Shown: positions 10,274 through 63,173 of the stretch, piece by piece
Layout of the letters: every line of letters begins with the position of its first letter
Position numbering within the stretch: position 1 is the first letter of the stretch
Position numbers and translations under genes: made by a program
Assembly (NCBI GenBank): GCA_016217905.1
Contig: JACRFL010000013.1
Coordinates: forward strand, 3,184-67,183
Source of the DNA: Candidatus Kaiserbacteria bacterium
GTDB taxonomy: Bacteria > Patescibacteriota > Minisyncoccia > Phycocordibacterales > Phycocordibacteraceae
Reading direction: 5' to 3'
Length of the DNA: 64,000 nt
Notes under the pieces: generated by a model
The model's database searches: none
What the model was told of the DNA's origin: nothing
Seen by the model: the letters and a program-made list of their open reading frames with translations, nothing else

Positions 10274-11965
10274 ATGACAAAAGACGAATTGAAAAACGCG
10301 CTTGCGGGTGTCCTGCAAGGGGAAGTATCGAATGATGCGGTGGCGCTTGAGAAAGCGAGCCGCGACACCTCCCTCTTCGAGCGAATGCCGAAGCTGGTAG
10401 TGTATCCAAAAGATGCCAAGGACGTGAGCGCGGCGGTGAGAGAGGTAGCCCGCGCCCGCTCCGCGGGCGCGGATGTATCGCTTGCGGCGCGCGCGGGCGG
10501 GACCGATATGTCGGGCGGCCCCTTGACCACTAGCATCGTGGTTTCCTTCACCAAACACATGAATCATGTACTCGAGGTTTCCTCCAACTTGGAGGCCCGG
10601 CCTCCAAGTGAAGGATATGCGGTGACGGAACCGGGGGTTTATTATAGGGATTTTGAAAAGGCGACGCTTGAAAAAGGCTTCATACTTCCCTCTTATCCCG
10701 CCAGCCGCGAGATAGCCGCCATGGGCGGCATCGTCGCGAACAATTCCGGCGGCGAGCGCACGCTCAAGTACGGCCAGACGGAGCGGTACGTCGAGGAACT
10801 GGAGGTCGTGCTCTCTGACGGTTCGCAAGTTACGTTCAAAGCGTTGACACCTGCGGAATTGGAGGAAAAAAAGAAACTTCAGACGCTTGAAGGCGCCATC
10901 TACCGCGAGATGGACGCGCTTATCACCGACAATGCCGGGCTCATCGAGGGGCGCCGGCCGCGCGTGTCGAAGAATTCCGCCGGCTACGCGCTCTGGAGCG
11001 TACTTGATGCGAAAACCGGCACCTTCAATCTCGCGAAGCTGATCTGCGGCTCCCAGGGGACGCTCGCCCTCTGGACGAAGGCGGAGCTCTCCCTCGTGAA
11101 GCCGAAAGGGCACCGCGCGATGCTCGTCGCCTTCCTCTACGACCTTTCCGACCTCCCCGAAATAGTAAAGCGCGTGCTCGCGCAGGGCCCGGAATCTTTC
11201 GAATCTTATGACGACCACACCTTCACGCTTGCGGTGAAATTCATTCCCGAGATGCTTTCGCAGATGGGCTTGTTTAAGGCCGCGCGGCTCGGCATCGACT
11301 TCATCAGCGAAGCGGCAATGGTCGCCACCGGCGGCGTGCCGAAGCTCATCTTGATGGCGGAATTCGCCGAGGACACTATCGAGGAAGCCGATCGGAAGGC
11401 GCTTCTCGCGAAGGAAGCGCTCGCCGACCTTCATCTTCATACCAAAATAGAGAAGGATGAGAAAGAGTCGGAGAAGTATTGGATCGTCCGACGCGAGAGC
11501 TTCTCGCTCCTGCGCAAGAACGTTCACGGGCTCCACACCGCGCCTTTCATCGACGATTTCGTCGTTCCGCCTTCGAGCTATCCCGACTTCCTGCCGAAAC
11601 TGAACGCGCTTCTCGAGGAATACTCATCGCACTTCATCTACACGATCGCGGGACACATCGGCAACGGCAACTTCCACATCATTCCGCTCATGGATCTCAC
11701 GAAGGAGGAGAACCGACAAGTCATCCTCGACCTTGCGCCCCGAGTCTACGAACTCGTCACCCGAGAGGGTGGCACGACGACCGGCGAGCACAACGACGGC
11801 ATCATCCGCACGCCGTACCTCAAGCTGGTTTTCGGCGCGGAAATGGTCGCGCTCTTCGAGCGGACGAAAAAAATCTTCGATCCTTTGAATATTTTCAACC
11901 CCGGGAAGAAAGTCGGCGGCACGTTTGCTGACATCGAGCGGGACATGATTAAGACGGCACCGTAA
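10274..11965 (+). CDS. FAD-linked oxidase (GlcD / D-lactate dehydrogenase-like, PCMH-type FAD-binding domain) carrying an in-frame palindromic insertion
   Basis: FAD-binding PCMH-type N-terminal domain and FAD-oxidase C-terminal domain (HGLHTAPFID, GEHNDGIIRTPYL). ATG at 10274 (MTKDELKNAL) is preferred over the tracker start 10217. Confidence 0.75.
   Translation: MTKDELKNALAGVLQGEVSNDAVALEKASRDTSLFERMPKLVVYPKDAKDVSAAVREVARARSAGADVSLAARAGGTDMSGGPLTTSIVVSFTKHMNHVLEVSSNLEARPPSEGYAVTEPGVYYRDFEKATLEKGFILPSYPASREIAAMGGIVANNSGGERTLKYGQTERYVEELEVVLSDGSQVTFKALTPAELEEKKKLQTLEGAIYREMDALITDNAGLIEGRRPRVSKNSAGYALWSVLDAKTGTFNLAKLICGSQGTLALWTKAELSLVKPKGHRAMLVAFLYDLSDLPEIVKRVLAQGPESFESYDDHTFTLAVKFIPEMLSQMGLFKAARLGIDFISEAAMVATGGVPKLILMAEFAEDTIEEADRKALLAKEALADLHLHTKIEKDEKESEKYWIVRRESFSLLRKNVHGLHTAPFIDDFVVPPSSYPDFLPKLNALLEEYSSHFIYTIAGHIGNGNFHIIPLMDLTKEENRQVILDLAPRVYELVTREGGTTTGEHNDGIIRTPYLKLVFGAEMVALFERTKKIFDPLNIFNPGKKVGGTFADIERDMIKTAP
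10584..10610. repeat. Palindromic element family A copy (CCAACTTGGAGGCCCGGCCTCCAAGTG), in frame inside the FAD-oxidase CDS
   Basis: Stem of 10 bp (ACTTGGAGGC / GCCTCCAAGT) with a 3-nt loop. Encodes SNLEARPPSE. The same sequence recurs at 38450 and 42379. Confidence 0.8.
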
Positions 11966-12010
11966 AAAAGGCGCCTCGCGCGAGGCGCCCTTGCGGAAAG
12001 GACCAGGAAA

Positions 12011-19697: not shown

Positions 19698-19916
19698 ACC
19701 CCGTTCATCCTCTCGATGGGAATGAGCCTCGGTTTTATAGGTGGTCTTAGGTAGCGAACAATAGTTCGCATGTAACGGACCGGTAAAAGTGTTAAGGTTC
19801 TTCCCGCGTGAGAACGAACTCTCTATAGTCTCATCGATACATTTCAAATGTCAAGCAAAATCTGAGGAAAAAACAGTGCAGAAGCTGTGCATATCTCTGT
19901 ATACTACGTGCATATC

Positions 19917-20669
19917 ATGACTCGCGACGAGAAGTGGCTCTTGGAGGAAAAATATCATGGAAACGCGACAGTCGCATATGCGGCGGATGCGAAGCGGCTC
20001 GCCTCCGGCGAGCCGCTCGGCTATGTGATCGGCTGGCAGCCGTTTCTCGGCCTCAACATCTATCTCGATTCGCACCCTCTCATCCCCCGCCCCGAGACGG
20101 AGTGGTGGACGGAGCAACTTCTAACCAACTTGGAAGCGAAGCTTCCAATTGGAAGCTTCGCTTCCAAGTTTAAGTTCCTCGACCTGTGCGCCGGATCCGG
20201 TGCCATCGGCTGTGCCGCGCTCGCGAGACTGCCGGACGCCCGGGTATATTTCGGCGAGATCGATCCGGCGCATACCGCGACCATTGTGAAAAACATTCGA
20301 GAAAATAATCTCGACGAACCACGCGCGGACATCCTCACCGGTGATCTCTTCGGACCGTTCGCCGGTTTGCGCTTCGACGTCATCGCGGCGAACCCGCCCT
20401 ACGTTTCCGCAGGCCGCGCGCTCCCCTCAAGCGTCGCGGGCTACGAGCCGGCTACGGCCCTCTTCGCCGGAGAGGATGGCCTCGATATCATCCGCCGCAT
20501 CGCGAAAGAGCTTTCGAAATATCTTAAAGAGAGCGGTACCGCGTGGATCGAGTGCGACAGCGCGCACGCGGCAGCCGCGTGCGCGCTCTTCGCGGAGCAG
20601 GGATTCGACGCACAGATACGCACCGACCAATACGGCGACTCGCGCGTTCTCGTAGTATCATTCCCCTGA
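19917..20669 (+). CDS. prmC: Release-factor N5-glutamine methyltransferase (HemK/PrmC family) carrying an in-frame 44-nt perfect palindrome
   Basis: NPPY catalytic motif (IAANPPYV), SAM-binding LDLCAGSGAIG. Start MTRDEKW at 19917. Confidence 0.75.
   Translation: MTRDEKWLLEEKYHGNATVAYAADAKRLASGEPLGYVIGWQPFLGLNIYLDSHPLIPRPETEWWTEQLLTNLEAKLPIGSFASKFKFLDLCAGSGAIGCAALARLPDARVYFGEIDPAHTATIVKNIRENNLDEPRADILTGDLFGPFAGLRFDVIAANPPYVSAGRALPSSVAGYEPATALFAGEDGLDIIRRIAKELSKYLKESGTAWIECDSAHAAAACALFAEQGFDAQIRTDQYGDSRVLVVSFP
20127..20170. repeat. 44-nt perfect palindrome (AACTTGGAAGCGAAGCTTCCAA | TTGGAAGCTTCGCTTCCAAGTT) in frame inside prmC; variant of family A
   Basis: Perfect 22+22 inverted repeat. Encodes NLEAKLPIGSFASKF between the conserved EQLL and LDLCAGSG blocks, where E. 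coli PrmC has a shorter linker. Confidence 0.8.
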
Positions 20670-21498: not shown

Positions 21499-22734
21499 AT
21501 GGCTGAGCCGCTCTCAACCGACCCGTACAAGGGTGTCCGCGACTTCTACCCCGCCGAGTGGGAGAGGGTGGGCGCGATGTTCAGCGCAATTCGGGATACG
21601 CTTCGCGCCTGGGGATACGAAGAATACAACGCCTCCCCGCTTGAGCGCACCGAACTCTACGAGGCGAAGACGTCAGAAGAGATAGTGAACGAGCAGACCT
21701 ACACCTTCACCGACCGCGGCGGTCGAAGCGTGACGCTCCGCCCCGAGATGACTCCCACGCTTGCGCGCATGGTCGCCGCCAAACGCCGCGAACTCACCTT
21801 TCCGCTGCGTTGGTTTTCCATCGGCAACCGCTTCCGCTACGAGCGTCCGCAGAAAGGCCGCCTCCGCGAGTTCTACCAGGCGGACATCGACCTCGTCGGT
21901 CTTCCCGAGGGCGAGGCGGACATCGAAATCGTACAACTCGCCTCGGCGATACTCACTGCGTTTGGCGCTACAGAACGCGATTTTATTATTCGAGTTAACT
22001 CTCGCTCACTTCTAAACGCCGCGTGCGAAGCGGCTGGACTTACCGGCGACGCAGTCAGACAGTATCTGCGTCTTCTCGATAAGAGATCGAAAATGACTCC
22101 TGAGGCCTTCCGAGCTGCTTCAACCGCGATTACCGCAACCGATCCGCTCACGCTCATCGATTCAAAAAAAATGGATGCCTTTATCTTTACGCTCAAAGAG
22201 CGCGGCATCGGCAATATCGTCTTCGACGCCGGCATCACGCGCGGTTTTGACTATTACACCGGCATGATTTTTGAGGTATTCGATACGAATCCGACGAACC
22301 CGCGCTCGCTCTTCGGCGGCGGACGCTATGACGGCCTGGTCGCACTCTGGGGCGACGACGCCGTCCCGGCGGTCGGCTTCGCGCTCGGGGATGTTACGCT
22401 CGCCGACTTTCTTGAGACGCATTCGCTCCTACCGAAGTCAGACTTCGGTAGGCCGCAGGTGTATCTTGGCACGCCGACCGCCGGCGACATCCCCGCTGCA
22501 CAAGCATTCGCTGATACGCTGCGCAAAGAGGGCTTCCGCGTTTTCGTCAATCTCTCCGACCGCTCGCTCGGCGACCAAATAAAAGATGCCGTGAAGCGCG
22601 GCGTCCCGCTCTTCCTCGCGTATGGTGTCGACGAGGTTGCTCGCCAAACGGTCCGCATGAAGATACTCCGTACCGGCGAAGAAGCTGAACTCCCGGCGTC
22701 CGAGCTCCCCGCGCGGCTGCGCGCTGGGAGCTAG
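21499..22734 (+). CDS. hisS: Histidyl-tRNA synthetase
   Basis: Class-II aaRS motifs and HisRS-specific blocks (RPEMTPTLARMV, FRYERPQKGRLREFYQ, GGGRYDGL). Contains a 25-nt perfect palindrome in frame. Confidence 0.9.
   Translation: MAEPLSTDPYKGVRDFYPAEWERVGAMFSAIRDTLRAWGYEEYNASPLERTELYEAKTSEEIVNEQTYTFTDRGGRSVTLRPEMTPTLARMVAAKRRELTFPLRWFSIGNRFRYERPQKGRLREFYQADIDLVGLPEGEADIEIVQLASAILTAFGATERDFIIRVNSRSLLNAACEAAGLTGDAVRQYLRLLDKRSKMTPEAFRAASTAITATDPLTLIDSKKMDAFIFTLKERGIGNIVFDAGITRGFDYYTGMIFEVFDTNPTNPRSLFGGGRYDGLVALWGDDAVPAVGFALGDVTLADFLETHSLLPKSDFGRPQVYLGTPTAGDIPAAQAFADTLRKEGFRVFVNLSDRSLGDQIKDAVKRGVPLFLAYGVDEVARQTVRMKILRTGEEAELPASELPARLRAGS
22428..22452. repeat. Palindromic element family B copy (CCTACCGAAGTCAGACTTCGGTAGG) in frame inside hisS
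   Basis: Perfect 12-bp arms around a central A. Encodes LPKSDFGR. Confidence 0.8.
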
Positions 22735-22738
22735 CCCT

Positions 22739-23320
22739 ATGCGCGCGATCACTTTCGACATCGAGTCCATCTCCGATTCCATGGTGCGCGGGCGCATCGA
22801 TGTCACCGAACAGGAGCTCACCGTCGTCGCCATCCACGATTCGGAAACCGGCGAGTTTTCTTCATATTTCAAAGAAGACTTGCCGAGACTCTGGCCGGTA
22901 CTCGAGCGCGCCGATATGCTCATCGGTTTCAATTCCGATGCGTTTGATATTCCGCTCTTGAACCGCTACTACCCAGGCGATCTCTCCCCTATCCGCTCGC
23001 TTGACCTGCTCGCCGAAGTGCAAAAAGTCCTCGGCCGGCGCATCCGCCTCCAATCGCTCGCGGAAGCGACCTTGGGCAAAGGGAAAAAGGGCGACGGCCT
23101 TTTGGCCGGCGAGTGGTGGCGCGAGGGGAAGAAAGACAAGGTCGCGCAGTACTGCATCGAGGACGTCCGGCTGACGCGCGCTCTCTACGACCACGCGATG
23201 GCGCACGGCGTCCTCAAATACAAAGACCTGCGCGATATCCGCGACATCAAGCTCGACACGTCGCACTGGAACGGCGCCATTTCCGCGACCCCCACGATGA
23301 CTCATGCGCTCCCGCTATGA
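22739..23320 (+). CDS. DEDD-type 3'-5' exonuclease (RNase H-like superfamily, PolB-exo-like)
   Basis: Exo I FDIES, Exo II GFNSDAFDIPLL, Exo III YCIEDV. Confidence 0.6.
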   Translation: MRAITFDIESISDSMVRGRIDVTEQELTVVAIHDSETGEFSSYFKEDLPRLWPVLERADMLIGFNSDAFDIPLLNRYYPGDLSPIRSLDLLAEVQKVLGRRIRLQSLAEATLGKGKKGDGLLAGEWWREGKKDKVAQYCIEDVRLTRALYDHAMAHGVLKYKDLRDIRDIKLDTSHWNGAISATPTMTHALPL

Positions 23321-24000: not shown

Positions 24001-24843
24001 TTACTCCTCCACCAACTTAAGCCGATAGATATCAAACGAATTGTCGCCTTCAAACATATCGGAGGGGTTGGGGAGATATTTTCTTTGTCTTGAAATTTCC
24101 TCGGTCGCATCGTTGATAAGACGATGAAAGACCGCGAAATCTTCTTCGCGCTCTTTGAAGTCTATTTCATATCGCCGCATCTGCGGAGAGCCATCGGCAT
24201 TCTTCGTCTTCTTGCATTCATACACGATGAAGCGCCGTACTGGCTTCCCGAACATAACACTTGCGGTGTAGTAGTTGAATATCGCCTGAATGATGAAAAG
24301 CGTCTTCGCCGCGCCCCTCTTCGTAAAGGACGCGACGAACTTGTGGTCCACGATGTCGACCGCGCCCTTTTGAATACGCGACTCTACCATCAGATCCGAA
24401 ACCGCCTTGATCGGGAGCGAGAGCCCTTCCACTTCTACCACTCCCCGCACTTCAACGCCAAGTACTTTATGCTTTGGCGGTCGCGCCAAATAATAACCAA
24501 TGGCCCGCGAATATTCCGTTTCCATCGCCTTCCGCTTCTCCCTCTTCGCGCTTCGCGTTGTTGCCGTTCCGAAATCAATCTCGAAGTCTCCGACGTCGCG
24601 CAGGTAATCGAGACCTTTTTGTATAGCACTATCTTTGGACACGCCCAAGTAGAAATGTTCGAGCGCTCGGTGAGCGGCACGTCCGACGACCGAAGCGGGT
24701 GTTGTCGGCGTGTCGTATATCTCTTCCACATAGCGCTTGTACCAGGCAAGCGGATTGCGCAGGAACGCCATCAAGCTTGAGTGGCTCCAGTGCTTGATGG
24801 GCGGTTTCGGTCTCCTTTTTGTCGCCTTTTTCTTTCCCCCCAT
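24001..24843 (-). CDS. PD-(D/E)XK nuclease superfamily protein (RecB/Cas4-like fold, no Fe-S cysteines)
   Basis: Catalytic block GAVDIVDHKFV (D ... DxK). N-terminal WSHSSLMAF is typical of this family. Confidence 0.55.
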   Translation of the reverse strand: MGGKKKATKRRPKPPIKHWSHSSLMAFLRNPLAWYKRYVEEIYDTPTTPASVVGRAAHRALEHFYLGVSKDSAIQKGLDYLRDVGDFEIDFGTATTRSAKREKRKAMETEYSRAIGYYLARPPKHKVLGVEVRGVVEVEGLSLPIKAVSDLMVESRIQKGAVDIVDHKFVASFTKRGAAKTLFIIQAIFNYYTASVMFGKPVRRFIVYECKKTKNADGSPQMRRYEIDFKEREEDFAVFHRLINDATEEISRQRKYLPNPSDMFEGDNSFDIYRLKLVEE

Positions 24844-34953: not shown

Positions 34954-35622
34954 CTAACGCTTCGTGCGCCACGCATCAATCTTGGCGTGGTGGCCGGTTC
35001 GGAGAACTTTGGGAACGCGATACTTCTTACCTTTGTATAAAATTGTCTCGGGGCGGGTGTAGACGGCCGATGAGGCGATACGACGCTCCTCCACGGAGGC
35101 GTCCTTGCCGAGGACGCCCGGCAGGCGGCGCGTGACCGCATCCACGATTGCGAGCGCCGGCACTTCCCCTCCGGTATACACCGCTTCGCCGACGGCAAAT
35201 TCTTTCACCGGCGCGAACGTCTTGAGGATCTTCTTCGCGCGCTCGTCGATGCCCTCGTAGCGGCCGCAGACAAGGACGACATCCGTGTACTTTGCAAGCG
35301 CGTCTGCATACTTATTTGTGAATTGCTTCCCGCTCGGACTAAACCATATAATTAGCGGCTTTTTCATGTAGGACGTACGACGTCCTACATTCTTTTTCAA
35401 AGCTTTTTCCACGGCTTTGACGACCGGGAGTGCGGTCATCACCATCCCGGGGCCGCCGCCATACGGACGTTCATCCACCTTGCCCCACTTGTTGTCGACG
35501 AAATCACGCGGGGTCTGATACGTTACAGAAATCTTCTTCTCCTTCCGCACGCGCCCGATAATCGACGCCGAAAGATACGCGTCGCACGCTTCTTCAAACA
35601 ATGTAATCAAATGGAATTTCAC
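34954..35622 (-). CDS. trmD: tRNA (guanine37-N1)-methyltransferase
   Basis: SPOUT/TrmD blocks ERPYGGGPGMVM. Confidence 0.9.
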   Translation of the reverse strand: MKFHLITLFEEACDAYLSASIIGRVRKEKKISVTYQTPRDFVDNKWGKVDERPYGGGPGMVMTALPVVKAVEKALKKNVGRRTSYMKKPLIIWFSPSGKQFTNKYADALAKYTDVVLVCGRYEGIDERAKKILKTFAPVKEFAVGEAVYTGGEVPALAIVDAVTRRLPGVLGKDASVEERRIASSAVYTRPETILYKGKKYRVPKVLRTGHHAKIDAWRTKR

Positions 35623-38449: not shown

Positions 38450-38475
38450 ACAACTTGGAGGCCGGGCCTCCAAGT
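38450..38475. repeat. Palindromic family A copy (CAACTTGGAGGCCGGGCCTCCAAGTG) between convergent rnr and smc; probable bidirectional terminator
   Basis: Same element as at 10584 in opposite orientation (loop CGG vs CCG). Sits 2 nt after the rnr stop and 3 nt before the smc stop. Confidence 0.75.
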
Positions 38476-40728: not shown

Positions 40729-41418
40729 TTACCAACCCATCTTCTCGAGTGCGTTCTGAGCGGAAGATTGTTCGGCTTCTTGCTTAGAGTTCCCTTCTCC
40801 GCGGGCGATTTCGGAGGAGCCAATGAAGACGCCGACGGTGAAGCGCTTGTCGTGATCGGGCCCGACTTCAGAGAGAGTCTCGTAGGCAGGCGTGATGCCC
40901 CGCTTCTCCTGTGCGCTTTCCTGGAACCTGCTCTTCGCGTCTTGGTAGGAGCGCTTGGCGATAACCTCGTCGATTTTAATGTACACATTCCGCGCGATGA
41001 ATTGTTCGGCCGGCGCGTAGCCCTGATCCAAATAGATTGCGCCGATGACTGCTTCGAACGCATCCGCGAGGATCACATCGCGCGCGCGGCCGGTATCTTT
41101 CGCCTCACCCTTCGAGAGCAGCAAAAAATCATTGATGCCGAGCGCCTGCGCGCGCTCGGCCAAGGAGACGGTGTTTACGAGCGCGGCGCGATACGCCGTG
41201 AGCTCCCCTTCGGGCTTCTCGGGGAATTTTTTAAAAAGAAAATCAGTAGTGGCGAGCTCAAGCACCGCATCACCGAGAAACTCGAGCCGCTCGTTGTGAG
41301 ACCCCGTGTATTCGCGGTGCTCGTTGAGGTAGGAGCGGTGCGTCAGGGCCTCGATAAGAAGGTCGAGGCTGTTGAAGGAGAGACCGAGTCGTGCTGCGAA
41401 AACGTTGAAATCAGGCAT
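40729..41418 (-). CDS. rnc: Ribonuclease III
   Basis: RNase III signature ERLEFLGDAVLE plus C-terminal dsRBD. Start at MPDFNVF (41418). Confidence 0.88.
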   Translation of the reverse strand: MPDFNVFAARLGLSFNSLDLLIEALTHRSYLNEHREYTGSHNERLEFLGDAVLELATTDFLFKKFPEKPEGELTAYRAALVNTVSLAERAQALGINDFLLLSKGEAKDTGRARDVILADAFEAVIGAIYLDQGYAPAEQFIARNVYIKIDEVIAKRSYQDAKSRFQESAQEKRGITPAYETLSEVGPDHDKRFTVGVFIGSSEIARGEGNSKQEAEQSSAQNALEKMGW

Positions 41419-42328
41419 GAAGTTGCGTCTCACGTGCGGCGCCGGCGTGGTCGAGGAGTTTCTGGACGGCGACAGTGACGATGGGGAGCATATCATCGTA
41501 GAAATTGAGATCAATGATGTCCTGGAGCCGGAACCATTTCGCGTCGTCGAGCCCGCCGCTCTTCTTCAGCTGAAGCGGCTCGAAGTTGCTCGACGCGAGG
41601 AAGAACCAGACGTGCTTCCTGACCTTCCCTTTCTCCGGGTGCGAAGCGACGTATTCGTTCTCGCCGACCTGTGCGCCCACGGAAGCGGTGAGACCGAGTT
41701 CTTCCTTGATGACGCGCGCGACGCCCGTCTGCGGCGTCGCGTCCTCTTCGATGTGGCCCTTCGAGAGCGTCCAGTGGCCGAAGACGTCGTGCACGAGCGC
41801 GAGGTAATACTGTCCCTCGTGCTTGGCATACACGATGGCGCCGCCCATTTTCTCAAGCGGCAATTCTTCGCGCTTTACTTTCTTTCCTCCGTGCTCGTTC
41901 TTGCCGGGTTCGCCGAGCTCCTTGTAGACCGCGCCGAGGACTCCGTTAACGAACCGGCCGCTCGAGTCGCCGCCGAAGGTCTTCGCGAGCTCGATGGCTT
42001 CGTTGATAGCGACTTTTGCGGGTACCTGTGTGCGATCGGCGAAGAGGAGTTCGTGGAGCCCGAGGCGGAGGATGTTGCGGTCAATGGGTGCGATGCGCTC
42101 CAAAGGCCACTCGGGAGCGGCTTTTTCGATGACGAGATCGATGTCGCTTTTCTTGGTGAGGACGCCCGAGAGAAGGCCATTCATGAACGATTGGTCGACA
42201 TCGCCGCTGCCGAACTCCTCGACATTGCGCGCGAGGATCGCGAACGTGTCCTTCTCGGACGCATGCATGGTGTCCCACTCAAAGAGTGTTTGAAGGACAA
42301 TGGAACGCGCGAGGTGTCGATTCGCCAT
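41411..42328 (-). CDS. nusB: NusB antitermination factor fused to a C-terminal Nudix hydrolase domain (start at MANRHL, 42328; tracker TTG start rejected)
   Basis: NusB fold from the start to about residue 150 (IVLQTLFEWD ... RFVNGVLGAVYKE). This is followed by a Nudix-box-like GHIEEDATPQTGVARVIKEELGL and a Nudix C-terminal part. Confidence 0.65.
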   Translation of the reverse strand: MANRHLARSIVLQTLFEWDTMHASEKDTFAILARNVEEFGSGDVDQSFMNGLLSGVLTKKSDIDLVIEKAAPEWPLERIAPIDRNILRLGLHELLFADRTQVPAKVAINEAIELAKTFGGDSSGRFVNGVLGAVYKELGEPGKNEHGGKKVKREELPLEKMGGAIVYAKHEGQYYLALVHDVFGHWTLSKGHIEEDATPQTGVARVIKEELGLTASVGAQVGENEYVASHPEKGKVRKHVWFFLASSNFEPLQLKKSGGLDDAKWFRLQDIIDLNFYDDMLPIVTVAVQKLLDHAGAARETQLHA

Positions 42329-42378
42329 GTTAAAGATCTGTGCTCGTAGTATAGCAAACAACGCGGCCGCGTGGATTG

Positions 42379-42407
42379 CCAACTTGGAGGTCCGGCCTCC
42401 AAGTTGG
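42379..42407. repeat. Palindromic family A copy (CCAACTTGGAGGTCCGGCCTCCAAGTTGG) in the rpmF-nusB spacer; terminator/attenuator-like hairpin
   Basis: 12-bp perfect arms, 5-nt loop. Confidence 0.75.
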
Positions 42408-43165: not shown

Positions 43166-43765
43166 TTATTCCCGAATGGAATCAAGATGCAGGAAGGAAC
43201 GGCGGTGGATAACGCAGGGGCCGTATTTTTCAAGTGCTTCGTAATGCGCGCGGGTACCGTAGCCCTTGTGCTTCTCAAAACCGTAGAGCGGGTACTCTGC
43301 CGACAGCCGGACCATGAGCCGGTCGCGGCTGACCTTCGCCGCAATAGAGGCGAGTGAGATAAGCGGAACGAGCTCGTCGCCGCCCACGATAGTTTCTTGC
43401 GCATATTCAGGCGGCGCCTTGAGTGCCCCGTCCAGCAGAATACGGAAGTCAGACTTCCGTACTTCTCCTACGAGAACACGTACGCCGCGGAAGAGCGCGC
43501 GACGCACGGCTGTTACGATTCCTTCCCTGTCGATTATTCCGGCGCTCTCGAACTCGACCGTAAAGCGCGCGTCGCCCAGGGCGACGCGCGCTTCGAGCAT
43601 CCGGTAAATCGCCTCCCTTTTCTTTTCTGAAAGTTTTTTCGAGTCCCTGACGCCCGGGAACTCGCCCGCCACATCGAACCCTTCCGGCATCGCGACCACG
43701 CCGACCGCCAAGGGTCCCGCCAAGGGTCCCCGCCCCGCTTCATCCACCCCGAGCAAGAATCGCAT
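43166..43765 (-). CDS. rnhB: Ribonuclease HII
   Basis: LGVDEAGRGPLAGPL catalytic N-terminus. Contains a family B palindrome in frame. Confidence 0.88.
   Translation of the reverse strand: MRFLLGVDEAGRGPLAGPLAVGVVAMPEGFDVAGEFPGVRDSKKLSEKKREAIYRMLEARVALGDARFTVEFESAGIIDREGIVTAVRRALFRGVRVLVGEVRKSDFRILLDGALKAPPEYAQETIVGGDELVPLISLASIAAKVSRDRLMVRLSAEYPLYGFEKHKGYGTRAHYEALEKYGPCVIHRRSFLHLDSIRE
43441..43461. repeat. Palindromic family B copy (TACGGAAGTCAGACTTCCGTA) in frame inside rnhB
   Basis: 10-bp arms. Encodes RKSDFR on the coding (minus) strand. Confidence 0.8.
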
Positions 43766-46982: not shown

Positions 46983-48224
46983 ATGGATATGCCTGCGGAG
47001 AAAGAACGCGATCATAAGAAGCTCGGCAAAGAGCTTGACCTCTTCACCTTCTCGGACTCGGTCGGCAAAGGACTTCCTCTTTTCACCCCCAAGGGCTCGG
47101 TTGTTCGCCGCGAACTTGAACGTTTTATTGTTGACGAAGAGATTCGACGCGGCTACCTCCACGTGTACACGCCCGATATCGCGAAAATTGATTTGTATAA
47201 AAAAAGTGGTCACTATCCGCACTACAAGGATTCTATGTACGCGCCTATTGAAATAGACAAGGAACAATTTATGCTCCGTCCGATGACTTGTCCGCATCAC
47301 TTTGAACTCTACCTGCGCAAGCCGGTGAGCTATCGTGAGTTGCCGATGCGCATTGCCGAGCTCGCGAAACTGTATCGTTACGAACAGTCCGGCGAAATTA
47401 TGGGGCTGCAACGAGTTCGCACTTTCTGTCTGGCCGATGCACATATTATTTGCGCAAACGAAGAACAGGCCGTGGATGAAATCAGCGGGGCGCTTGACCT
47501 CATTGAATACGTCACTTCCGTATTCGATCTCGCGCTTGACGTGGATTACCGTTATCGCCTTTCGCTCGGCGATCGCGCGAACACAGAAAAATATTATGCA
47601 AATGACGACGGCTGGGAGAAAGCGGAGGACCTTCTGCGAAAGCTGATGCAAAAGCGCGGTTCAAAATTTGAAGAAGCGAAGGATGAGGCCGCCTTCTATG
47701 GACCGAAAATTGATATTCAAATGAAAAATGTGAACGGAAAAGAAGATACTGCCTTTACCGTGCAGTACGACTTTTGCATGCCGGAGCGATTTGACCTTTC
47801 ATACATCGGCGAGGATGGTGAAAAGCATCGTGCGTTTGTTGTGCATCGCTCCTCTATCGGTGCCATTGAACGTATTATGGCGTTCCTCATAGAGAAATAT
47901 GCGGGTGCCTTCCCGCTCTGGCTTGCGCCCGTGCAGGCCACAGTGTTGAGCGTGTCGGAGAAACATGCGGCGTATGCGCGGGAAGTCGCCAATGCGCTTA
48001 GGGCAGAGAACATCCGTGCGAACGTAGACGACACGAACGAATCGCTTGGGAAAAAGATACGCAACGCGAAGACGGAAAAAATTCCCTACTCGCTTGTCGT
48101 CGGCGATGCCGAAGTCGCCGCAAAGACAGTTTCGGTCGACAGCCGCGACCACGGAAAGCTCGGCGCGACTTCCCTGTCTGATTTCATTGCAAAAGCGGTT
48201 GAAGAAATAAGAGATCGAAAATAA
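46983..48224 (+). CDS. thrS: Threonyl-tRNA synthetase, catalytic plus anticodon-binding domains only (no N-terminal TGS/editing domains)
   Basis: Begins at the catalytic-core entry RDHKKLGKELDLF (about residue 240 of E. coli ThrRS). Class-II motifs. No upstream ORF encodes the editing domain. Confidence 0.8.
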   Translation: MDMPAEKERDHKKLGKELDLFTFSDSVGKGLPLFTPKGSVVRRELERFIVDEEIRRGYLHVYTPDIAKIDLYKKSGHYPHYKDSMYAPIEIDKEQFMLRPMTCPHHFELYLRKPVSYRELPMRIAELAKLYRYEQSGEIMGLQRVRTFCLADAHIICANEEQAVDEISGALDLIEYVTSVFDLALDVDYRYRLSLGDRANTEKYYANDDGWEKAEDLLRKLMQKRGSKFEEAKDEAAFYGPKIDIQMKNVNGKEDTAFTVQYDFCMPERFDLSYIGEDGEKHRAFVVHRSSIGAIERIMAFLIEKYAGAFPLWLAPVQATVLSVSEKHAAYAREVANALRAENIRANVDDTNESLGKKIRNAKTEKIPYSLVVGDAEVAAKTVSVDSRDHGKLGATSLSDFIAKAVEEIRDRK

Positions 48225-48239
48225 GGAAGTCTGACTTCC
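48225..48239. repeat. Palindromic family B copy (GGAAGTCTGACTTCC) immediately after the thrS stop; bidirectional terminator-like
   Basis: 7-bp arms, opposite orientation (central T). Confidence 0.6.
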
Positions 48240-48243
48240 CTAC

Positions 48244-51063
48244 TTAGGCGCCGAGGATCGCGAGCGCACGAGTAAGCGCGAGCTTCGCGCCCGTCACGCC
48301 CGTCGAGTAGCTGGAGTCGATAGCGGTTGTGAGGGAGGCAACGAGCTTCTCCAGAACCGGCGTCGAAAATCGGGCGGTCAAGCGTACGATTCCGGCATCG
48401 CAGGTAGTGCCGTCAATACGCGCGCGATACGCGTCGTCGATGAGGCAGACGATGCTTGAGAGAAGCTGCTCCGGCGCACCGGCACCCTGCACATGCCCCC
48501 GCAACCCAGCGAAGACCGCGGCACGGTCGCCCTCAAGCAGCGCGGCGGCAAAATCGCGAACGGATGCGGGTGCTGCAACTGCCGTCGCCGCCTCGCCGGT
48601 ATCGGCGGCAATCGGTTCGACGTTTTCATACACCGGCTCAACCCTTTCATATATCGGCTCTACTCGCGGCGCCGGTTCCCCTTTTTCTTCGACAGTTCGC
48701 GGAAGATGGTGCCGCGAAAGGCTCTTCACGATGTCATCAATCGAGAGCGCGCCGTCGTGCGCAAAAGACTTGAATCCGTGGTACGGCGAATACCCGCGCG
48801 GCGTCGCGGGCTCTGGCACAGGGAGAAGAGATTCGTTTTTCTCCGGAGGTTTCGGGTGCGGCGGAGCTACGGAAACGGCCCGCGTGGAAAGCGCAGTCGA
48901 AACGCGGGAAACGAAGCTGCGAATCGAGCGGTTCGCGAACGGCACCGCGCCGAAGAGCACGAGATACGCAAGCGCGAGCGCCCATCCGACAAGGGCGATC
49001 CAATACAGTACCGTGCCGACGGGTCCGAGCTCAAGGCCGGTGTACGGAATTTGAGAAAGATAGAGATACGCGAGCGGTTGCGCGTTCACGTGCGGAAGCG
49101 CCGCAAGCGTGATGGTCGGCGGAGGCGGGCCTCCTCCGCCACCACCGCCACCACCGCAGTTGCTGGTGCATCCGCCTCCGCCTCCGCCAGTCACAGAGAG
49201 CGCCGCGGTACAGGTGAGCGTCTGGCCGGTATTCGCCGTGAATACACCGGTGTACGTGTAGCTGCCTACGGCCGTCGGCGACACACTTGTCGAACTCGGT
49301 ATCGTCGTCGTCGCGCCGACACCGTTGTCTATAGACACGCTTTGTATTCCCGAGCCGCCCCACGAGAGCGTCGCCGAACTGCCAGAAACAATGCTGGTCG
49401 GACTGACGGCGAGAACGCACGACGGACCTCCGCCGCCGCCTCCGCCTGTGTTAACCGAGACCGTCGCGGTACAAGTCGCGGTTCCACCCGTCGGACTCAC
49501 CACTGTGCCGGTAAAGATAGTGTCCGCATTGATCGCGAGAGACATTATCGAACCGCCCACTGCGGGACTCACCGAGCCGATGCCCTGATTAATACTGAAA
49601 GTGTCGGCATTTGTGGCCGTCCACGTAAGCGATGCGCGATCGCCTCTATTCACTTTCACCGGAGAGGCGAGAAGCGTGCAGGTGGGTGCGGACGGAGGGG
49701 GTGGGGGTGGGGGTTTCGTCGTGACCGTCACCGTCGCCGCGCAAGTTGCCGAGCCGCCCGCGCCGGTGGCGGTGCCGGTGTACGTGGTGGTAAGGGTCGG
49801 CGAGACCGACTTCGAGCCGGACGCGACCGGCGCCACGGAGCCGATAGTGTGATTAATCGAGAACGATGCCGCATTCGCGGTCGTCCAAGAAAGTGTCGAA
49901 GGCGAGCCGGTCTGAATAGTCGTCGGCGATGCGACAAGGGTGCAGGTGGGAGCGGGAGGTGGGGGTGGGAGATGCGGGTATGTGCAGGTGATACCGGCCT
50001 GGCTCGTCGCAGCCGGGTTGTAGTTGGTGGCGGAGGGGTCCATACAGCCGTAAACGGGAGGGGGCGGGGGCGGTGTTGGGGTGACCGTAACGGTTGTCGA
50101 GCACGTTACAGAACCGCCCGCGCCGGTGGCGGTGCCGGTGTACGTGGTGGTAAGGGTCGGCGAGACCGACTTCGAGCCGGACGCGACCGGCGCCACGGAG
50201 CCGATAGTGTGGTCGATGGAAAATGCCGCAGCACTCGTCGTCGTCCATGAAAGCGTTAAAGAGGAGCCGACTTGGACGGTCGAAGGCGACGCCGAGAGTG
50301 CACAGGCAGGAGTGACAAGGGGCGGAGGAGCGCAACCCGGATCAGTCCCTATGTATTTATAGTTTCGCGGAGTCGAATCATCGTAGGCCCAGATCTGCCA
50401 GTTATTCCCGTTTAGATCATTACCGCCAGTACAGTAATTGGTCCAGATGGGCTCGACGACAACGGGAGCGACACATCCGTTCGCAATCGTTCCGTTTTCT
50501 ACAAACAGGTAGTTCGTCGGGGTGGAATTATCGTATGCCCATATTTGCCATGGGTGCAAAACGTCATTCGCTCCCGTACAGTAATTAGTCCACACGGGGG
50601 GCGGGGACGAGACTGCGATCTCAGCCGTACAGGTACCCTCCCCGCCCGGGCCCGAGACAGTCATCGTGTAGTTCGTCGTCGCTGTGACGGAGATTGTTCG
50701 AGAGCCGGAGTCAGCGGGCGAAACCGCTCCTACACCGTTGTCGATAGCTGCGCCCGTGGCCGTAGTCGTTGTCCACGAGAGCGTCGAGGAGCCGCCGCCG
50801 AAGGCGAGCGAAGCCGGGTTCGCGGAGAGCGCGCAGGTGGGTGCGGGCGGCCCGTCTAGACCGCCGCCGCCGCCGTCACCAGCGCCGCCTCCTCCCCCGC
50901 CCCCATCTCCGCCGCCACCTCCTCCACCGCCCCCATCTCCCTCGGCAAGCGCATGGAGAACGCCGAACGGAGACAACTCACCGTAGTGCTGCAGCACAAA
51001 GCCGCGCGAGAGCGCGAGTAGCATAAAAAGCAGTATCAGGGTGATCGAATATCGGAAAGGCAT
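48244..51063 (-). CDS. Giant cell-surface protein with tandem Ig-like repeats, poly-Gly/Pro linkers, a C-proximal IPYTG + TM + basic segment and a roughly 200-aa cytoplasmic tail
   Basis: Signal peptide MPFRYSITLILLFMLLALS. At least five repeats of about 75-90 aa (P.C.L.ASP..V..G...TLSWTT ... Y.GT.TG.GG. ..C). Two repeats share about 100 nt of identical DNA (49750-49850 vs 50110-50210). Sorting-signal-like SQIPYTGLELGPVG[TM]NRSIRS. Confidence 0.65.
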   Translation of the reverse strand: MPFRYSITLILLFMLLALSRGFVLQHYGELSPFGVLHALAEGDGGGGGGGGGDGGGGGGGAGDGGGGGLDGPPAPTCALSANPASLAFGGGSSTLSWTTTTATGAAIDNGVGAVSPADSGSRTISVTATTNYTMTVSGPGGEGTCTAEIAVSSPPPVWTNYCTGANDVLHPWQIWAYDNSTPTNYLFVENGTIANGCVAPVVVEPIWTNYCTGGNDLNGNNWQIWAYDDSTPRNYKYIGTDPGCAPPPLVTPACALSASPSTVQVGSSLTLSWTTTSAAAFSIDHTIGSVAPVASGSKSVSPTLTTTYTGTATGAGGSVTCSTTVTVTPTPPPPPPVYGCMDPSATNYNPAATSQAGITCTYPHLPPPPPAPTCTLVASPTTIQTGSPSTLSWTTANAASFSINHTIGSVAPVASGSKSVSPTLTTTYTGTATGAGGSATCAATVTVTTKPPPPPPPSAPTCTLLASPVKVNRGDRASLTWTATNADTFSINQGIGSVSPAVGGSIMSLAINADTIFTGTVVSPTGGTATCTATVSVNTGGGGGGGPSCVLAVSPTSIVSGSSATLSWGGSGIQSVSIDNGVGATTTIPSSTSVSPTAVGSYTYTGVFTANTGQTLTCTAALSVTGGGGGGCTSNCGGGGGGGGGPPPPTITLAALPHVNAQPLAYLYLSQIPYTGLELGPVGTVLYWIALVGWALALAYLVLFGAVPFANRSIRSFVSRVSTALSTRAVSVAPPHPKPPEKNESLLPVPEPATPRGYSPYHGFKSFAHDGALSIDDIVKSLSRHHLPRTVEEKGEPAPRVEPIYERVEPVYENVEPIAADTGEAATAVAAPASVRDFAAALLEGDRAAVFAGLRGHVQGAGAPEQLLSSIVCLIDDAYRARIDGTTCDAGIVRLTARFSTPVLEKLVASLTTAIDSSYSTGVTGAKLALTRALAILGA

Positions 51064-52298: not shown

Positions 52299-52344
52299 GA
52301 GAGCCACGCGATTTCCGGCGTTAGCCGGAAATCGCGTGGCTCTC
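52299..52344. repeat. 21-bp perfect inverted repeat straddling the sortase stop codon (GAGAGCCACGCGATTTCCGGC gtta GCCGGAAATCGCGTGGCTCTC)
   Basis: Seen directly. The right arm encodes the last seven sortase residues (ESHAISG). No T-tract follows. Confidence 0.7.
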
Positions 52345-55991: not shown

Positions 55992-58543
<2,552 letters not shown>

Positions 58544-60491: not shown

Positions 60492-60569
60492 GTCTCAATT
60501 GTACTCCGCTAGAATCTAGTTTAGCAAAAATCTCGACCGACTTCGCACGCGCCGAGGCCGTATGCGCTT

Positions 60570-60607
60570 GCCCCAGAGCCCGCGCGTACTCGCGCGGGCT
60601 CTGGGGC
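60570..60607. terminator. 17-bp perfect hairpin (GCCCCAGAGCCCGCGCG tact CGCGCGGGCTCTGGGGC) between convergent genes
   Basis: Seen directly. Lies 5 nt from the stop of the minus-strand gene. No clear T-tract. Confidence 0.45.
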
Positions 60608-60611
60608 AGAA

Positions 60612-62324
60612 TCACGAATTCGAAATGTCTCGTATCTCTTTTGTAACCACTTCTTCTGCCTCTTCAAGTTTTTGCTCAAATTGTTCCAAAAATTCCGCTT
60701 CTTCGTCTGTCAGTTTTCTATTGACTTTCTTGAGCCGAGCCACATGTTTTTGAACGCCATCGCGAAGGACCTTAAACGCTCGTTCGGATGTTTTCTCCGC
60801 CTCCCGTGCTTCACGTCGCATACGCGATATGGTGCGGGGAATCCTAAACCAGAGGCGAGCTCCGATCCAAACAAGAGCGCCGAGTGCGAGCAATATTAGG
60901 ATTGCGACAGAAAGATATTTCAAAGTGAAACCAATAAGACCTGTCACAAACTCCGATCGAACGGTAATCGTAAGTGGGGATGTTTCTGCACTCTGTGCTC
61001 CTCGATCATCTTTCACGTGGAGGATTATGGTGTACACGCCGGGGTCAAGCCGTTTGGTGGCCACAAGCGCAAAGTCGCCCAAAGAGTTGCTTCGGGTAAA
61101 TTCCTCCGACATCAGTGAGTTACCTTCGCGGATGGAGACGATTACATCGGAATCGGGATAGGTCGTTCCCCTGACTTTCAGAATATCTCCCTCTTCTATC
61201 GCCTCCGGATAGTGGGTAATGACCGGAGCGTCGATGCCTTCAATCGTAAACTCTGCCGATCCGCTGCGAATGTTGCCGGCGTTGTCTATGGCCGATACAA
61301 AAAGAGTATAGGCACCGGGAATCTGTGACGGGAGAACATACGGATTGGATTCCGCAAGGGGAGCTGTCTTGACCGGCTTCGTATCACTTCCTATTTTGAT
61401 TTCGTAGTGACTTATCCCCGATTCGTTGTCTGTCGTGTTGAAGAAAACGACCGGCTGGGGTTCCAGCCCCTTGTTTCCGTGCGGGAAGGAGATAGAGAAT
61501 GGTTTCGGCGGAGTGGTATCAATATTCACGCGGTACCGCGAGACTGCGCTCCAGCCGGCAGAGGTGCGCGCTTGGAGCGAGAAGTAATAGGTACCATCCG
61601 GAAGCTCATCAATTTTCTTTTTTGAGATAGGCGGAATGTAGGAAACCGACGGATTGCCTACGGGAGATTTTCCAATGAGCGTGCGGACTTCAAGTGTACC
61701 CTCCGGCAACTTCCACGAAAATTCTGGCGTATTGTCTGCATACCATTTCCCCTGGTCCGGATGCGTGGCAGAGGTGATGCCGAGTGTGTTCCCGGTCGCG
61801 ACCGGGGGCGTTTCCGTTTGAGGCGCAAGAGGAGGCCTCTCTCCCGCGGCGGTGAGCGTAAAGACCGCCATCCGAAGCCCGTTTAAGATATTCATCCCTG
61901 TGCCATCGTTTGCCAGAACAGAGCCAGAGGAAAAGCTTAGATTCGCTTGCCCGGCACTCCGCGCGCGGAAGGTAATAGTAAGGATTTTCCCAGAGGCACC
62001 CGTATAGCCGGGGTTAAGCACGATACCTTCAAAAGAAACAGTGCCTTGGCTGTTCGAAAAAGACGGCTCCGCAGGCCAGAGAGAGAAAATTGACCCCTGT
62101 TTGGAAATAGAGACGACTTCAAACTTGTCCCACGGAAAAGACACGACGCCGGAAGCGGCATTCATCGCCTGATCGGAGCTCTCTACATTCACGTTTACAG
62201 AAAAGGTGCTGCCGACACTGTACGAACCAGACGGCGGCGAAAAATTGAGAGATGCCGCCTGCGCCGAAAACGGCGCAAGTACGAACAGTGCGAACACGAA
62301 CGTTATTTTATAAATCGTATCCAT
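60612..62324 (-). CDS. Surface protein with N-terminal cohesin-like domain, Ig-like region, C-proximal TM and cytoplasmic coiled-coil tail
   Basis: Signal peptide MDTIYKITFVFALFVLAPFSAQA. Cohesin-like beta-sandwich (ASLNFSPPSGSYSVGSTFSVNVNV ... KILTITFRARSAGQANLSF). TM TGLIGFTLKYLSVAILILLALGALVWIG. Charged tail. Confidence 0.55.
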   Translation of the reverse strand: MDTIYKITFVFALFVLAPFSAQAASLNFSPPSGSYSVGSTFSVNVNVESSDQAMNAASGVVSFPWDKFEVVSISKQGSIFSLWPAEPSFSNSQGTVSFEGIVLNPGYTGASGKILTITFRARSAGQANLSFSSGSVLANDGTGMNILNGLRMAVFTLTAAGERPPLAPQTETPPVATGNTLGITSATHPDQGKWYADNTPEFSWKLPEGTLEVRTLIGKSPVGNPSVSYIPPISKKKIDELPDGTYYFSLQARTSAGWSAVSRYRVNIDTTPPKPFSISFPHGNKGLEPQPVVFFNTTDNESGISHYEIKIGSDTKPVKTAPLAESNPYVLPSQIPGAYTLFVSAIDNAGNIRSGSAEFTIEGIDAPVITHYPEAIEEGDILKVRGTTYPDSDVIVSIREGNSLMSEEFTRSNSLGDFALVATKRLDPGVYTIILHVKDDRGAQSAETSPLTITVRSEFVTGLIGFTLKYLSVAILILLALGALVWIGARLWFRIPRTISRMRREAREAEKTSERAFKVLRDGVQKHVARLKKVNRKLTDEEAEFLEQFEQKLEEAEEVVTKEIRDISNS

Positions 62325-63172: not shown

Positions 63173-63173
63173 G

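Follow-up and report, generated by a model that had tools for sequence, protein, structure and literature searches.

Perfect palindromes built on the core GAAGTC-N-GACTTC stand at three places in a stretch of 64,000 nucleotides of Candidatus Kaiserbacteria DNA (hereafter the window, 64 kb in all, with a GC content of 58%): within hisS, within rnhB and directly after thrS. These three sites are real copies of a DNA palindrome family. The reading that we favour, and to which we give an even chance of being right, is that of a selfish palindromic repeat family that acts at the level of DNA and would be spread and kept perfect by hairpin-templated copying. A broader proposition, put forward more tentatively, is that Parcubacteria carry an undescribed, actively maintained palindrome system that would have entered the same sites of the essential genes rnhB, dnaE and hisS repeatedly and in independent lineages. 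The three palindromes, their host genes and the open reading frame (ORF) that faces thrS are the following.

22428..22452 (core 22434-22446), plus strand: 25-nt perfect palindrome CCTACC-GAAGTCAGACTTC-GGTAGG, in full CCTACCGAAGTCAGACTTCGGTAGG, within hisS, read as L-P-K-S-D-F-G-R at residues ~310-317 of the histidyl-tRNA synthetase (HisRS).
43441..43461 (core 43445-43457), minus strand: 21-nt perfect palindrome TACG-GAAGTCAGACTTC-CGTA, in full TACGGAAGTCAGACTTCCGTA, within rnhB, read as R-K-S-D-F-R at residues 103-108 of RNase HII.
48225..48239, no strand: 15-nt perfect palindrome GGAAGTCTGACTTCC, occupying most of the 19 nt that separate thrS from the convergent 939-aa ORF.
21499..22734, plus strand: hisS, histidyl-tRNA synthetase, 411 aa, Pfam tRNA-synt_His and HGTP_anticodon.
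43166..43765, minus strand: rnhB, RNase HII, 199 aa, Pfam RNase_HII.
46983..48224, plus strand: thrS, a short threonyl-tRNA synthetase (ThrRS), identified by Pfam, with the catalytic core and anticodon domain alone.
48244..51063, minus strand: 939-aa ORF with Gly/Pro/Thr-rich repeats and no Pfam match, convergent with thrS.

The original prediction had given the positions and sequences of the three palindromes exactly as they are found; its identification of hisS, rnhB and thrS is upheld by Pfam, and the KSDF translations of the two coding copies are confirmed (LLPKSDFGR in HisRS, VRKSDFRI in RNase HII). Genes without a Pfam check were called by ORF heuristics, and a few such calls are wrong. 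The third copy begins with the base directly after the thrS TAA stop (48222-48224) and is separated by 4 nt from the stop codon of the facing ORF, in a gap that spans 48225-48243. The pattern GAAGTCWGACTTC has exactly three matches in the 64-kb window against none in 100 dinucleotide-preserving shuffles, and relaxing the search to two mismatches or fewer yielded no extra copies there. In a Logan assembly of SRR12113407, the hisS palindrome is identical base for base and the encoded RNase HII is identical to that of the window. Because this independent assembly reproduces them, the palindromes of the window are not assembly artefacts.

The exact proteins of the window are annotated as those of Candidatus Kaiserbacteria, which belong to the Parcubacteria, and the core is not confined to this stretch. 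Counted over 254.5 kb of Kaiserbacteria-like DNA (the window, 3 syntenic rnhB loci and 17 hisS loci), GAAGTC-N-GACTTC occurs 13 times, while unrelated control loci, 655 kb in all, have none; the underlying HisRS metagenome scan gave 17 Kaiserbacteria-like loci, and its other 63, ~30% identical, served as negative controls. An extended set of 267.5 kb, which includes three more rnhB loci, holds 15 perfect copies, 3 with one mismatch and 18 with two, where chance predicts 0.55 and 9.65 for one and two mismatches, respectively, and 3 of the 18 two-mismatch copies are symmetric doubles in which the palindrome is preserved. Degenerate copies are rare, and the core density in 254-267 kb of Kaiserbacteria DNA is ~1 per 18-20 kb.

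A scan for GGAAGTCNGACTTCC over one genome per prokaryotic species matched at least 120 stretches, and 53 of 120 among the matches listed are titled as Parcubacteria or Patescibacteria records, with GC contents of 29-59%. The labels of these 53 among the matches listed comprise Parcubacteria, Patescibacteria, Kaiser-, Giovannoni-, Ryan-, Lipton-, Vogel-, Nomura-, Wolfe-, Campbell- and Tagabacteria, Paceibacterota, Minisyncoccia and auto-labelled 'Saccharibacteria' bins. Since small genomes of the Candidate Phyla Radiation (CPR) type make up a minor share of a species-level genome collection, such a proportion points to a strong enrichment of the core in the CPR. Viral contigs gave 53 single matches to the W-centred 15-mer, a background-like result. 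On these counts, the core family appears to be widespread across Parcubacteria (CPR) lineages. It would also be previously undescribed: a literature search on the core sequences and on palindromic repeats of CPR or Parcubacteria returned nothing relevant and no mention of the core, and an Rfam scan of the whole 64-kb window on both strands found no family at the gathering score. The same scan shows no tRNA, rRNA or riboswitch in the window. As a separate observation, one contig labelled Lentimicrobiaceae (39% GC; L154, the L numbers being our handles for sequences other than the window) bears two copies, at 6694 and 6857, with long Parcubacteria-style arms TTGTTGGAAGTCGGACTTCCAACAA that are near-identical to those of L175, a Paceibacterota genome of the same groundwater project; L154 may be a mis-binned CPR contig or reflect a transfer.

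The anatomy of the element emerges from 82 CPR copies. The 13-nt core almost always lies within G...C, and at flank pairs 2-7 Watson-Crick pairing is found in 54-82% of copies, with all four pair types represented, whereas the same positions pair in ~30% of 74 non-CPR matches; from pair 8 outward, arm complementarity is at chance level. These pairing statistics bear out the idea that the arms covary while the core stays constant, and the unit is a ~27-nt perfect palindrome with a constant centre of 13-15 nt, (G)GAAGTC-N-GACTTC(C), and covarying arms of ~7 bp. The arms follow a weak symmetric consensus only (...AATWTTYG-core-CRAAWATT...), and no GTAG-type asymmetric tetranucleotide is enriched in the outward flanks of the 82 copies, where the weak consensus C-R-A-A-W-A-T-T is again symmetric. 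They are often alike within a genome (three copies in L130, two in L133, and likewise in L068 and L058) and different between genomes. Paired cores 18-29 nt apart are frequent and form one larger palindrome, as in L059, L086, L099, L125, L153 and the rnhB and dnaE elements described below.

Most copies lie inside genes, namely two of the three in the window and about two thirds of those in the CPR; 43 of the 65 CPR copies of the 15-mer fall within long ORFs. All three frames are in use there, giving GS[P/R/Q]TS, KSDF or EV[G/R]LP, so that KSDF, which had been taken for the peptide of the family, is just one of its three readings. The related claim that a palindrome encodes one peptide from both strands holds within a given frame and fails across frames. 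With C or G at the centre, the core is free of stop codons in all six frames, while a T centre creates TGA in one frame. Judging from the codons, stop avoidance may explain both the dominance of C and G centres in the wider family and the KSDF frame of the two A/T-centred coding copies in the window.

At the hisS site, relatives of the window carry other bases in the same symmetry. The core is GAAGTC-A-GACTTC in the window; in L183 the site reads TTACCGAAATCAGATTTCAGTAA (GAAATC-A-GATTTC), with changes at symmetric third codon positions, and in L182 it reads TACCGAAGTTAAACTTCGGTA (GAAGTT-A-AACTTC), with C>T and G>A, both of them non-synonymous. Palindromy in hisS is kept by paired substitutions. 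In the AlphaFold 2 (AF2) model, the copy falls in a disordered linker, residues 308-319, with a predicted local distance difference test score below 50 at residues 313-317. Of 120 orthologs of 74-81% identity, 117 have a linker of 23 aa between their catalytic and anticodon-binding domains, in which about eight positions are hypervariable: KSDF appears in about a dozen orthologs, KLNF in others, and the remaining ones have unrelated sequence of equal length. With linker length fixed in this way, KSDF in hisS is not the insert that had been proposed. Beside the copy, hisS is directly followed by a 3'-5' exonuclease-like gene (22739-23320, RNase_H_2 / DNA_pol_B_exo2), and a PD-(D/E)XK nuclease gene lies nearby (24001-24843).

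In the AF2 model of RNase HII, the rnhB copy falls in a loop that connects helix 83-102 with strand 107-111, shortly ahead of the catalytic LLDG strand; structure mapping thus puts both coding KSDF segments in loops or linkers, as had been anticipated. The supposition that KSDF is not a conserved protein motif also stands, for it is missing from the solved structures of HisRS and RNase HII of unrelated organisms (at the rnhB site, those of E. coli and Thermotoga show gaps) and from most close orthologs. Of the 120 closest RNase HII sequences, 87 are 'empty' at the site (LAPDAALVRIQ) and ~24 are filled, mostly with a two-core element read as ECGSQTS....KSDFHIL and in a few cases with one or three cores or with a sister core, GGACATC-S-GATGTCC, read as GHPMS...MSNF. 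The window itself has the one-core version, 2 aa longer than the empty form. In the DNA of three filled orthologs, the element has the structure GCAGAATGTG-core-spacer-core-CACATTCTGC and, compared with the nearest empty allele, swaps 27 nt for 54-58 nt. Its right arm, CACATTCTGC, is similar to the codons native to an empty allele, CACATACAGC, and its left arm is an inverted copy of the right one.

Two filled rnhB alleles share 57 of 58 bases within the element, an identity that ends at the element edges: it is 74% over the remainder of the gene and 71% in the flanking 60 nt. Outside the element, most filled alleles are nearest to empty ones: filled P0009, for instance, is 90% identical to empty P0010 and 84% identical to the closest filled allele. 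Because the closest relatives are mostly empty, the filled state was either gained repeatedly or transferred between lineages, and the same site is filled in many unrelated lineages. These comparisons rely on nearest-neighbour identities, the neighbour-joining (NJ) tree of this 190-aa protein being star-like and weak.

A comparable situation is found in dnaE of L058 (6702-9977, GCA_041642995), which has two inserts that are not in the window, L055 or L057: one adds 14 aa (TPTSEVGVPTESVG) and the other 17 aa (HFNSPDLEVGLPLGSPTSK), the latter being a 52-nt two-core palindrome. The right outer arm overlaps a native GGC/GGG codon on one side, and the insert arms CCCGAC/GTCGGG look like a genome-specific arm subfamily of L058. 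No target-site duplications or direct repeats were found at the dnaE or rnhB insertion borders. From these alignments, the rnhB and dnaE elements are genuine insertions or replacements that most orthologs do not have.

The family had been described as a second one, independent of another set of palindromes in the window. That independence does not survive comparison with relatives, where hybrids occur. L058 has ACTTGG-AAGTC-G-GACTT-CCAAGT inside dnaE and ACTTGG-GGGTC-G-GACCC-CCAAGT at position 20449, the window counterpart being ACTTGG-AGGCC-S-GGCCT-CCAAGT; L181 has a two-core ACTTGGAGGTT.../...AACCTCCAAGT; and in L186, ATGTAGGAC-ATC-S-GAT-GTCCTACAT parallels ATGTAGGACGTACGACGTCCTACAT at 35366 of the window. 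Both families have the common frame GGA-NNNN-S-NNNN-TCC and common arms, and their centres differ by symmetric changes. Sister palindromes of the window include the following.

10587..10609, plus strand: ACTTGGAGGCCCGGCCTCCAAGT, in frame within a FAD-oxidase gene, with the frame GGA-NNNN-S-NNNN-TCC and arms as in GAAGTC-core copies of relatives.
38453..38475, no strand: ACTTGGAGGCCGGGCCTCCAAGT, in the 29-nt gap between convergent RNase R and SMC-like genes.
42379..42407, no strand: CCAACTTGGAGGTCCGGCCTCCAAGTTGG, where the nusB-NUDIX gene starts (41411-42382, minus strand), in its gap to the upstream L32 gene (42409-42921, minus strand).

Beside these, another palindrome family with shared arms comprises ATGTAGGACGTACGACGTCCTACAT at 35366-35390 in trmD and GTGGGACGTACGACGTCCCAC at 57547-57567 in pheT; relatives have the form ...ATGTAGGACATCSGATGTCCTACAT... 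(4866 and 9013 in L186, 1708 in L185).

Taken at the level of DNA, these features could be accounted for as follows. The palindrome would fold back as single-stranded DNA during replication, and arm-to-arm template switching (copy-choice) would keep it perfect, mirroring or correcting mutations. Switching at short microhomology would copy the core to a new locus, where the arms would be made of one native flank and its inverted duplicate. Selection would then retain the copies that are in frame and free of stops in tolerant sites, such as surface loops, linkers and short 3' gaps, and a few gene-gap copies would be co-opted as bidirectional terminators. The selection on structure that had been put forward is not borne out in the RNA sense: palindromy runs through the would-be loop GTC-N-GAC to the single centre base, there is no sense-strand bias (C and G centres relative to the sense strand number ~15 and 16), and the polarity of the arms is usually reversed with respect to a terminator. 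Maintenance at the level of DNA fits better with these three properties, and a palindrome that acts as DNA, through fold-back, a cruciform or symmetric recognition, is the interpretation favoured by the sequences.

Several points weigh against a selfish, hairpin-copied family. A search of the sites and of the DNA examined for a mobilising enzyme, for target-site duplications and for an asymmetric recognition motif gave nothing, and for this reason mobility is something that we infer. No transposase or HUH gene lies near the sites among the window genes scanned, which are housekeeping genes only; the neighbours include rpoD, dnaG, SMC-like, RNase R, RNase III, nusB-NUDIX, PD-(D/E)XK nuclease and 3'-5' exonuclease-like genes. 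Length is unchanged at hisS, where the copy could have arisen in place, and the poorly resolved NJ tree makes recurrent gain and recombinational spread of one allele inseparable. The sampled Kaiserbacteria DNA is mostly syntenic with the window, and the division of matches into CPR and non-CPR follows record titles. Lastly, selfish repeats are normally species-specific, and the same 15-nt centre across GC contents of 29-59% is unusual for them; conserved recognition by a protein could be responsible instead.

That last point leads to one of the two strongest alternatives, which we nevertheless consider fairly unlikely: the core would be the binding site of a conserved dimeric protein of Parcubacteria, of the parS, Noc-binding-site or matS type, or a DNA-uptake signal, and its copies would build up at any place that coding constraints permit. 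A dyad-symmetric site of 13-15 bp that is conserved class-wide despite such differences in GC content would fit this explanation, as would the apparently low copy number in Kaiserbacteria DNA, the lack of strand bias, the many intragenic sites and a hisS site that fits its linker at unchanged length. The rnhB element that is 57/58 identical in genes of 74% identity is also what biased uptake followed by recombination could give; however, that identity stops at the element edges, which leaves no recombination tract, and the density of the core is far below that of known uptake sequences. Sites bound as duplex DNA need neither covarying 7-bp arms nor nested two-core palindromes of 52-58 nt, nor do they call for insertions of 14-17 aa into essential genes, and sister cores with GGCC, CATC and GGTC centres on the same arms fit hairpin evolution better.

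The other alternative of similarly low probability is that the copies are functional RNA hairpins, acting as bidirectional terminators or 3' stabilisers in gaps and as RNase III or regulatory stem-loops in genes, and kept by selection on the structure of the RNA. It draws on folding and on the intergenic copies. The RNA folds of the hisS palindrome (-22.5 kcal/mol, z score -4.65), of the window rnhB palindrome (-18.4 kcal/mol, z -4.4) and of the L055 copy after thrS span z scores from -4.4 to -5.8; at -42 kcal/mol (z -10.8), the rnhB element with two cores is the most stable. Intergenic copies abut the stops of convergent genes: besides the thrS/939-aa ORF gap of the window, L055 has AAAAAGGGAAGTCCGACTTCCCTTTT directly after thrS (5489) and a one-mismatch copy after gyrB (4090), and L166 has a copy after gyrB (6532). 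The 3' flank CCCTWYTTANGC is common to these four intergenic copies, which are orthologous or paralogous to each other, and the one that follows thrS in L055, AAAAAGGG...CCCTTTT, has the form of a textbook bidirectional terminator. Sister palindromes occupy other convergent-gene gaps (38453-38475 and 11970-11989), and a perfect palindrome functions in both orientations. How these copies are oriented towards the genes on either side is blurred by the noise of the ORF-heuristic gene calls.

The hairpin that had been proposed after thrS of the window differs between the strands. On the thrS strand it is weak (-6 kcal/mol, z +1.0), no better than shuffles, while on the minus strand it folds at -13.5 kcal/mol, is extended by G.U pairs over ~48219-48245 and is followed by UUUUCG. 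A terminator consensus scan made no call at this site; the 48225 palindrome may be the terminator of the 939-aa ORF, and a bidirectional terminator role is plausible for the gene-gap subset. Several points speak against functional RNA. Two thirds of the CPR copies are inside ORFs, complementarity across the loop GTC-N-GAC is useless for RNA, and the arms are T-rich at 5' and A-rich at 3' on both strands, the reverse of terminator polarity. No sense-strand bias towards tolerance of G.U pairs is seen either, near-perfect intragenic palindromes having 13 G.T and 9 A.C mismatches on the sense strand, a comparison of low power, and presence or absence at one site among close relatives argues against essential regulation. 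Apart from its palindrome, thrS has an ORF that is open from 46890, so that its first 79 nt are shared with the end of dnaE, with orthologs of 410-414 aa suggesting a start near 46983; its ThrRS has no N-terminal TGS or editing domains.

A distinctly improbable alternative dispenses with a mobile family: quasi-palindromes would be perfected in place by template-switch mutation, helped by the complementarity of GC-rich codons, and the common core would reflect convergence or old shared ancestry. A general excess of unrelated perfect palindromes in Kaiserbacteria genes speaks for it, and the excess in Kaiserbacteria DNA counts in favour of the selfish family as well. The window has 25 perfect-palindrome loci with a stem of at least 10, of which ~6.5, mostly intergenic, are left after codon shuffling of the called genes; the density of such loci is 27.5 per 100 kb in the 254.5 kb of Kaiserbacteria-like DNA against 5.8 in the 655 kb of control, so that perfect palindromes of this class are ~5x more frequent than in control DNA and ~4x more than in codon-shuffled genes. 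Some conserved palindromes are by-products of self-complementary peptides in GC-rich codons, such as RLAxGEP (CGGCTCGCCnnnGGCGAGCCG at 19993) and ARVALGDAR at 43563, and conserved peptide and codon usage do explain at least the RLAxGEP palindrome. The hisS copy, gained without a change of length, would also be at home in this scheme. The peptide-motif explanation is nonetheless inapplicable to the KSDF sites, because those lie in hypervariable or insert-bearing segments. Mutation in place cannot account for the same 15-mer in different genes of dozens of distant CPR genomes, and it fails with its absence from the control DNA, with the net insertions in dnaE and rnhB, with an element 57/58 identical in diverged genes and with the genome-specific arm subfamilies of L130, L133, L068 and L058; L133 already has two copies with identical flanks at non-orthologous sites. 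The weakest explanation, chance coincidence or an assembly artefact, has nothing in its favour except that the window has as few as three copies, and it has practically no likelihood of being true, given the empty shuffles, the agreement of the Logan assembly, the in-frame position of copies within intact essential genes and their recurrence in many public genomes.

Other palindromes of the window may be recorded here. The second rnhB palindrome (43563-43593, 31 nt, EARVALGDARF) is also present in L057 (10176-10200); its peptide ARVA-L-GDAR is self-complementary by codon (GCG/CGC, GTC/GAC, GCC/GGC) and conserved in Kaiserbacteria RNase HII, and it may be an old palindrome fixed in the protein. 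A methyltransferase-like gene (19887-20669, Pfam MTS) has palindromes at 19993-20017 and 20559-20587 that are kept at orthologous sites with variable loops in L180, L181, L186 and L187, in the forms AGCGGCTCGCC-nnn-GGCGAGCCGCT (RLAxGEP) and AGCGCGCACGCGGC-n-GCCGCGTGCGCGCT, respectively. Between them, at 20127-20170, lies a loopless perfect palindrome of 44 nt, AACTTGGAAGCGAAGCTTCCAATTGGAAGCTTCGCTTCCAAGTT, in frame; a Logan contig, L054, has its first base within this palindrome, at position 20134 of the window, which suggests that such palindromes break assemblies. Unrelated sequences with 4-nt loops form stems of 21 bp (52299-52344) and 18 bp (60569-60608) at gene borders or in intergenic DNA. 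The last two ORFs (62303-63857) have a third-position GC of 0.42-0.48, where values elsewhere are mostly 0.55-0.82, and may be foreign or recently acquired DNA.

Among known systems, the core family appears to work most like the Rickettsia palindromic elements (RPEs) and like repetitive extragenic palindromic (REP) elements. RPEs, of ~150 bp, form ten families integrated 44 times in R. conorii, and nearly half of those from three families lie inside ORFs (PMC10969869). The core family is likewise palindromic, in frame in tolerated regions of unrelated housekeeping genes, to whose products it contributes a short peptide, and also intergenic. Its core elements are 5-10x shorter than RPEs (units of 15-27 nt and composites of 52-58 nt against ~100-150 bp), and where each RPE family has one conserved peptide, the core is a perfect palindrome with a single centre base, read in three frames on both strands, with an equal-length replacement seen in hisS. 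RPEs belong to one genus of the Rickettsiales, whereas the core family is class-wide, with Candidatus Kaiserbacteria/Parcubacteria as hosts. REP elements and the bacterial interspersed mosaic elements (BIMEs) that they compose are hairpin repeats of 20-40 nt in tens to hundreds of copies, mobilised by REP-associated tyrosine transposases (RAYTs, Y1 HUH), often paired and often at gene 3' ends, and they are thought to act as single-stranded DNA hairpins. The core copies are comparable in being short, hairpin-forming, often paired and often at gene 3' ends. Unlike REPs, which are extragenic, imperfect, species-specific and marked by a 5' GTAG, they are mostly intragenic, perfect, class-wide and devoid of an asymmetric motif, and no RAYT gene was seen among the window genes scanned.

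Miniature inverted-repeat transposable elements, of 50-500 bp, have terminal inverted repeats and target-site duplications, whereas the whole element is here a single palindrome, in units below 50 bp and with no duplications seen. HIP1, GCGATCGC, is an 8-bp cyanobacterial palindrome found at ~1 per kb, abundant in coding DNA and kept at orthologous sites, for which we know of no established function. It resembles the core as a short palindrome conserved in a group of about phylum level and common in coding regions, yet HIP1 has no covarying arms and no insertions, while the core is rarer, armed and inserting. Uptake sequences are asymmetric and occur at ~1 per kb. Inverted pairs of the DNA uptake sequence of Neisseria and the uptake signal sequence of Haemophilus share with the core their conservation in a clade and their permissive frames within genes; such pairs also double as terminators behind genes, and uptake sequences can spread from one lineage to another by recombination (PMC2346458, in part). 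The core differs from them in being itself palindromic, in its ~1 per 18-20 kb and in its structure-preserving arms. Quasipalindrome template-switch mutagenesis, reportedly modelled by Ripley and studied in E. coli by Lovett and colleagues, perfects inverted repeats through paired arm changes, such as are seen in the hisS substitutions and the symmetric double variants; it is however a mutational mechanism and not an element family, and on its own leaves a conserved dispersed core unexplained.

CPR genomes are tiny and streamlined and have been thought to be poor in repeats, and a dispersed, apparently class-wide family of palindromes points the opposite way. Since it tolerates translation in six frames and recurs at fixed positions of essential enzymes in lineages whose closest relatives are without it, this family would be a further case of selfish DNA that shapes proteins, a phenomenon known until now mainly from Rickettsia. 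In practical terms, the core could mark DNA as that of Parcubacteria, probably causes contigs of CPR assemblies to break and may offer a natural system for the creation and upkeep of palindromes, through template switching or a new enzyme. Should the core turn out to be bound by a protein or to serve in uptake, a conserved piece of CPR chromosome biology would have come to light. If a maintained palindrome system of Parcubacteria does exist, it would imply a machinery for hairpin- or cruciform-specific copying, homing or recognition that is new to bacteria and reshapes CPR proteins.

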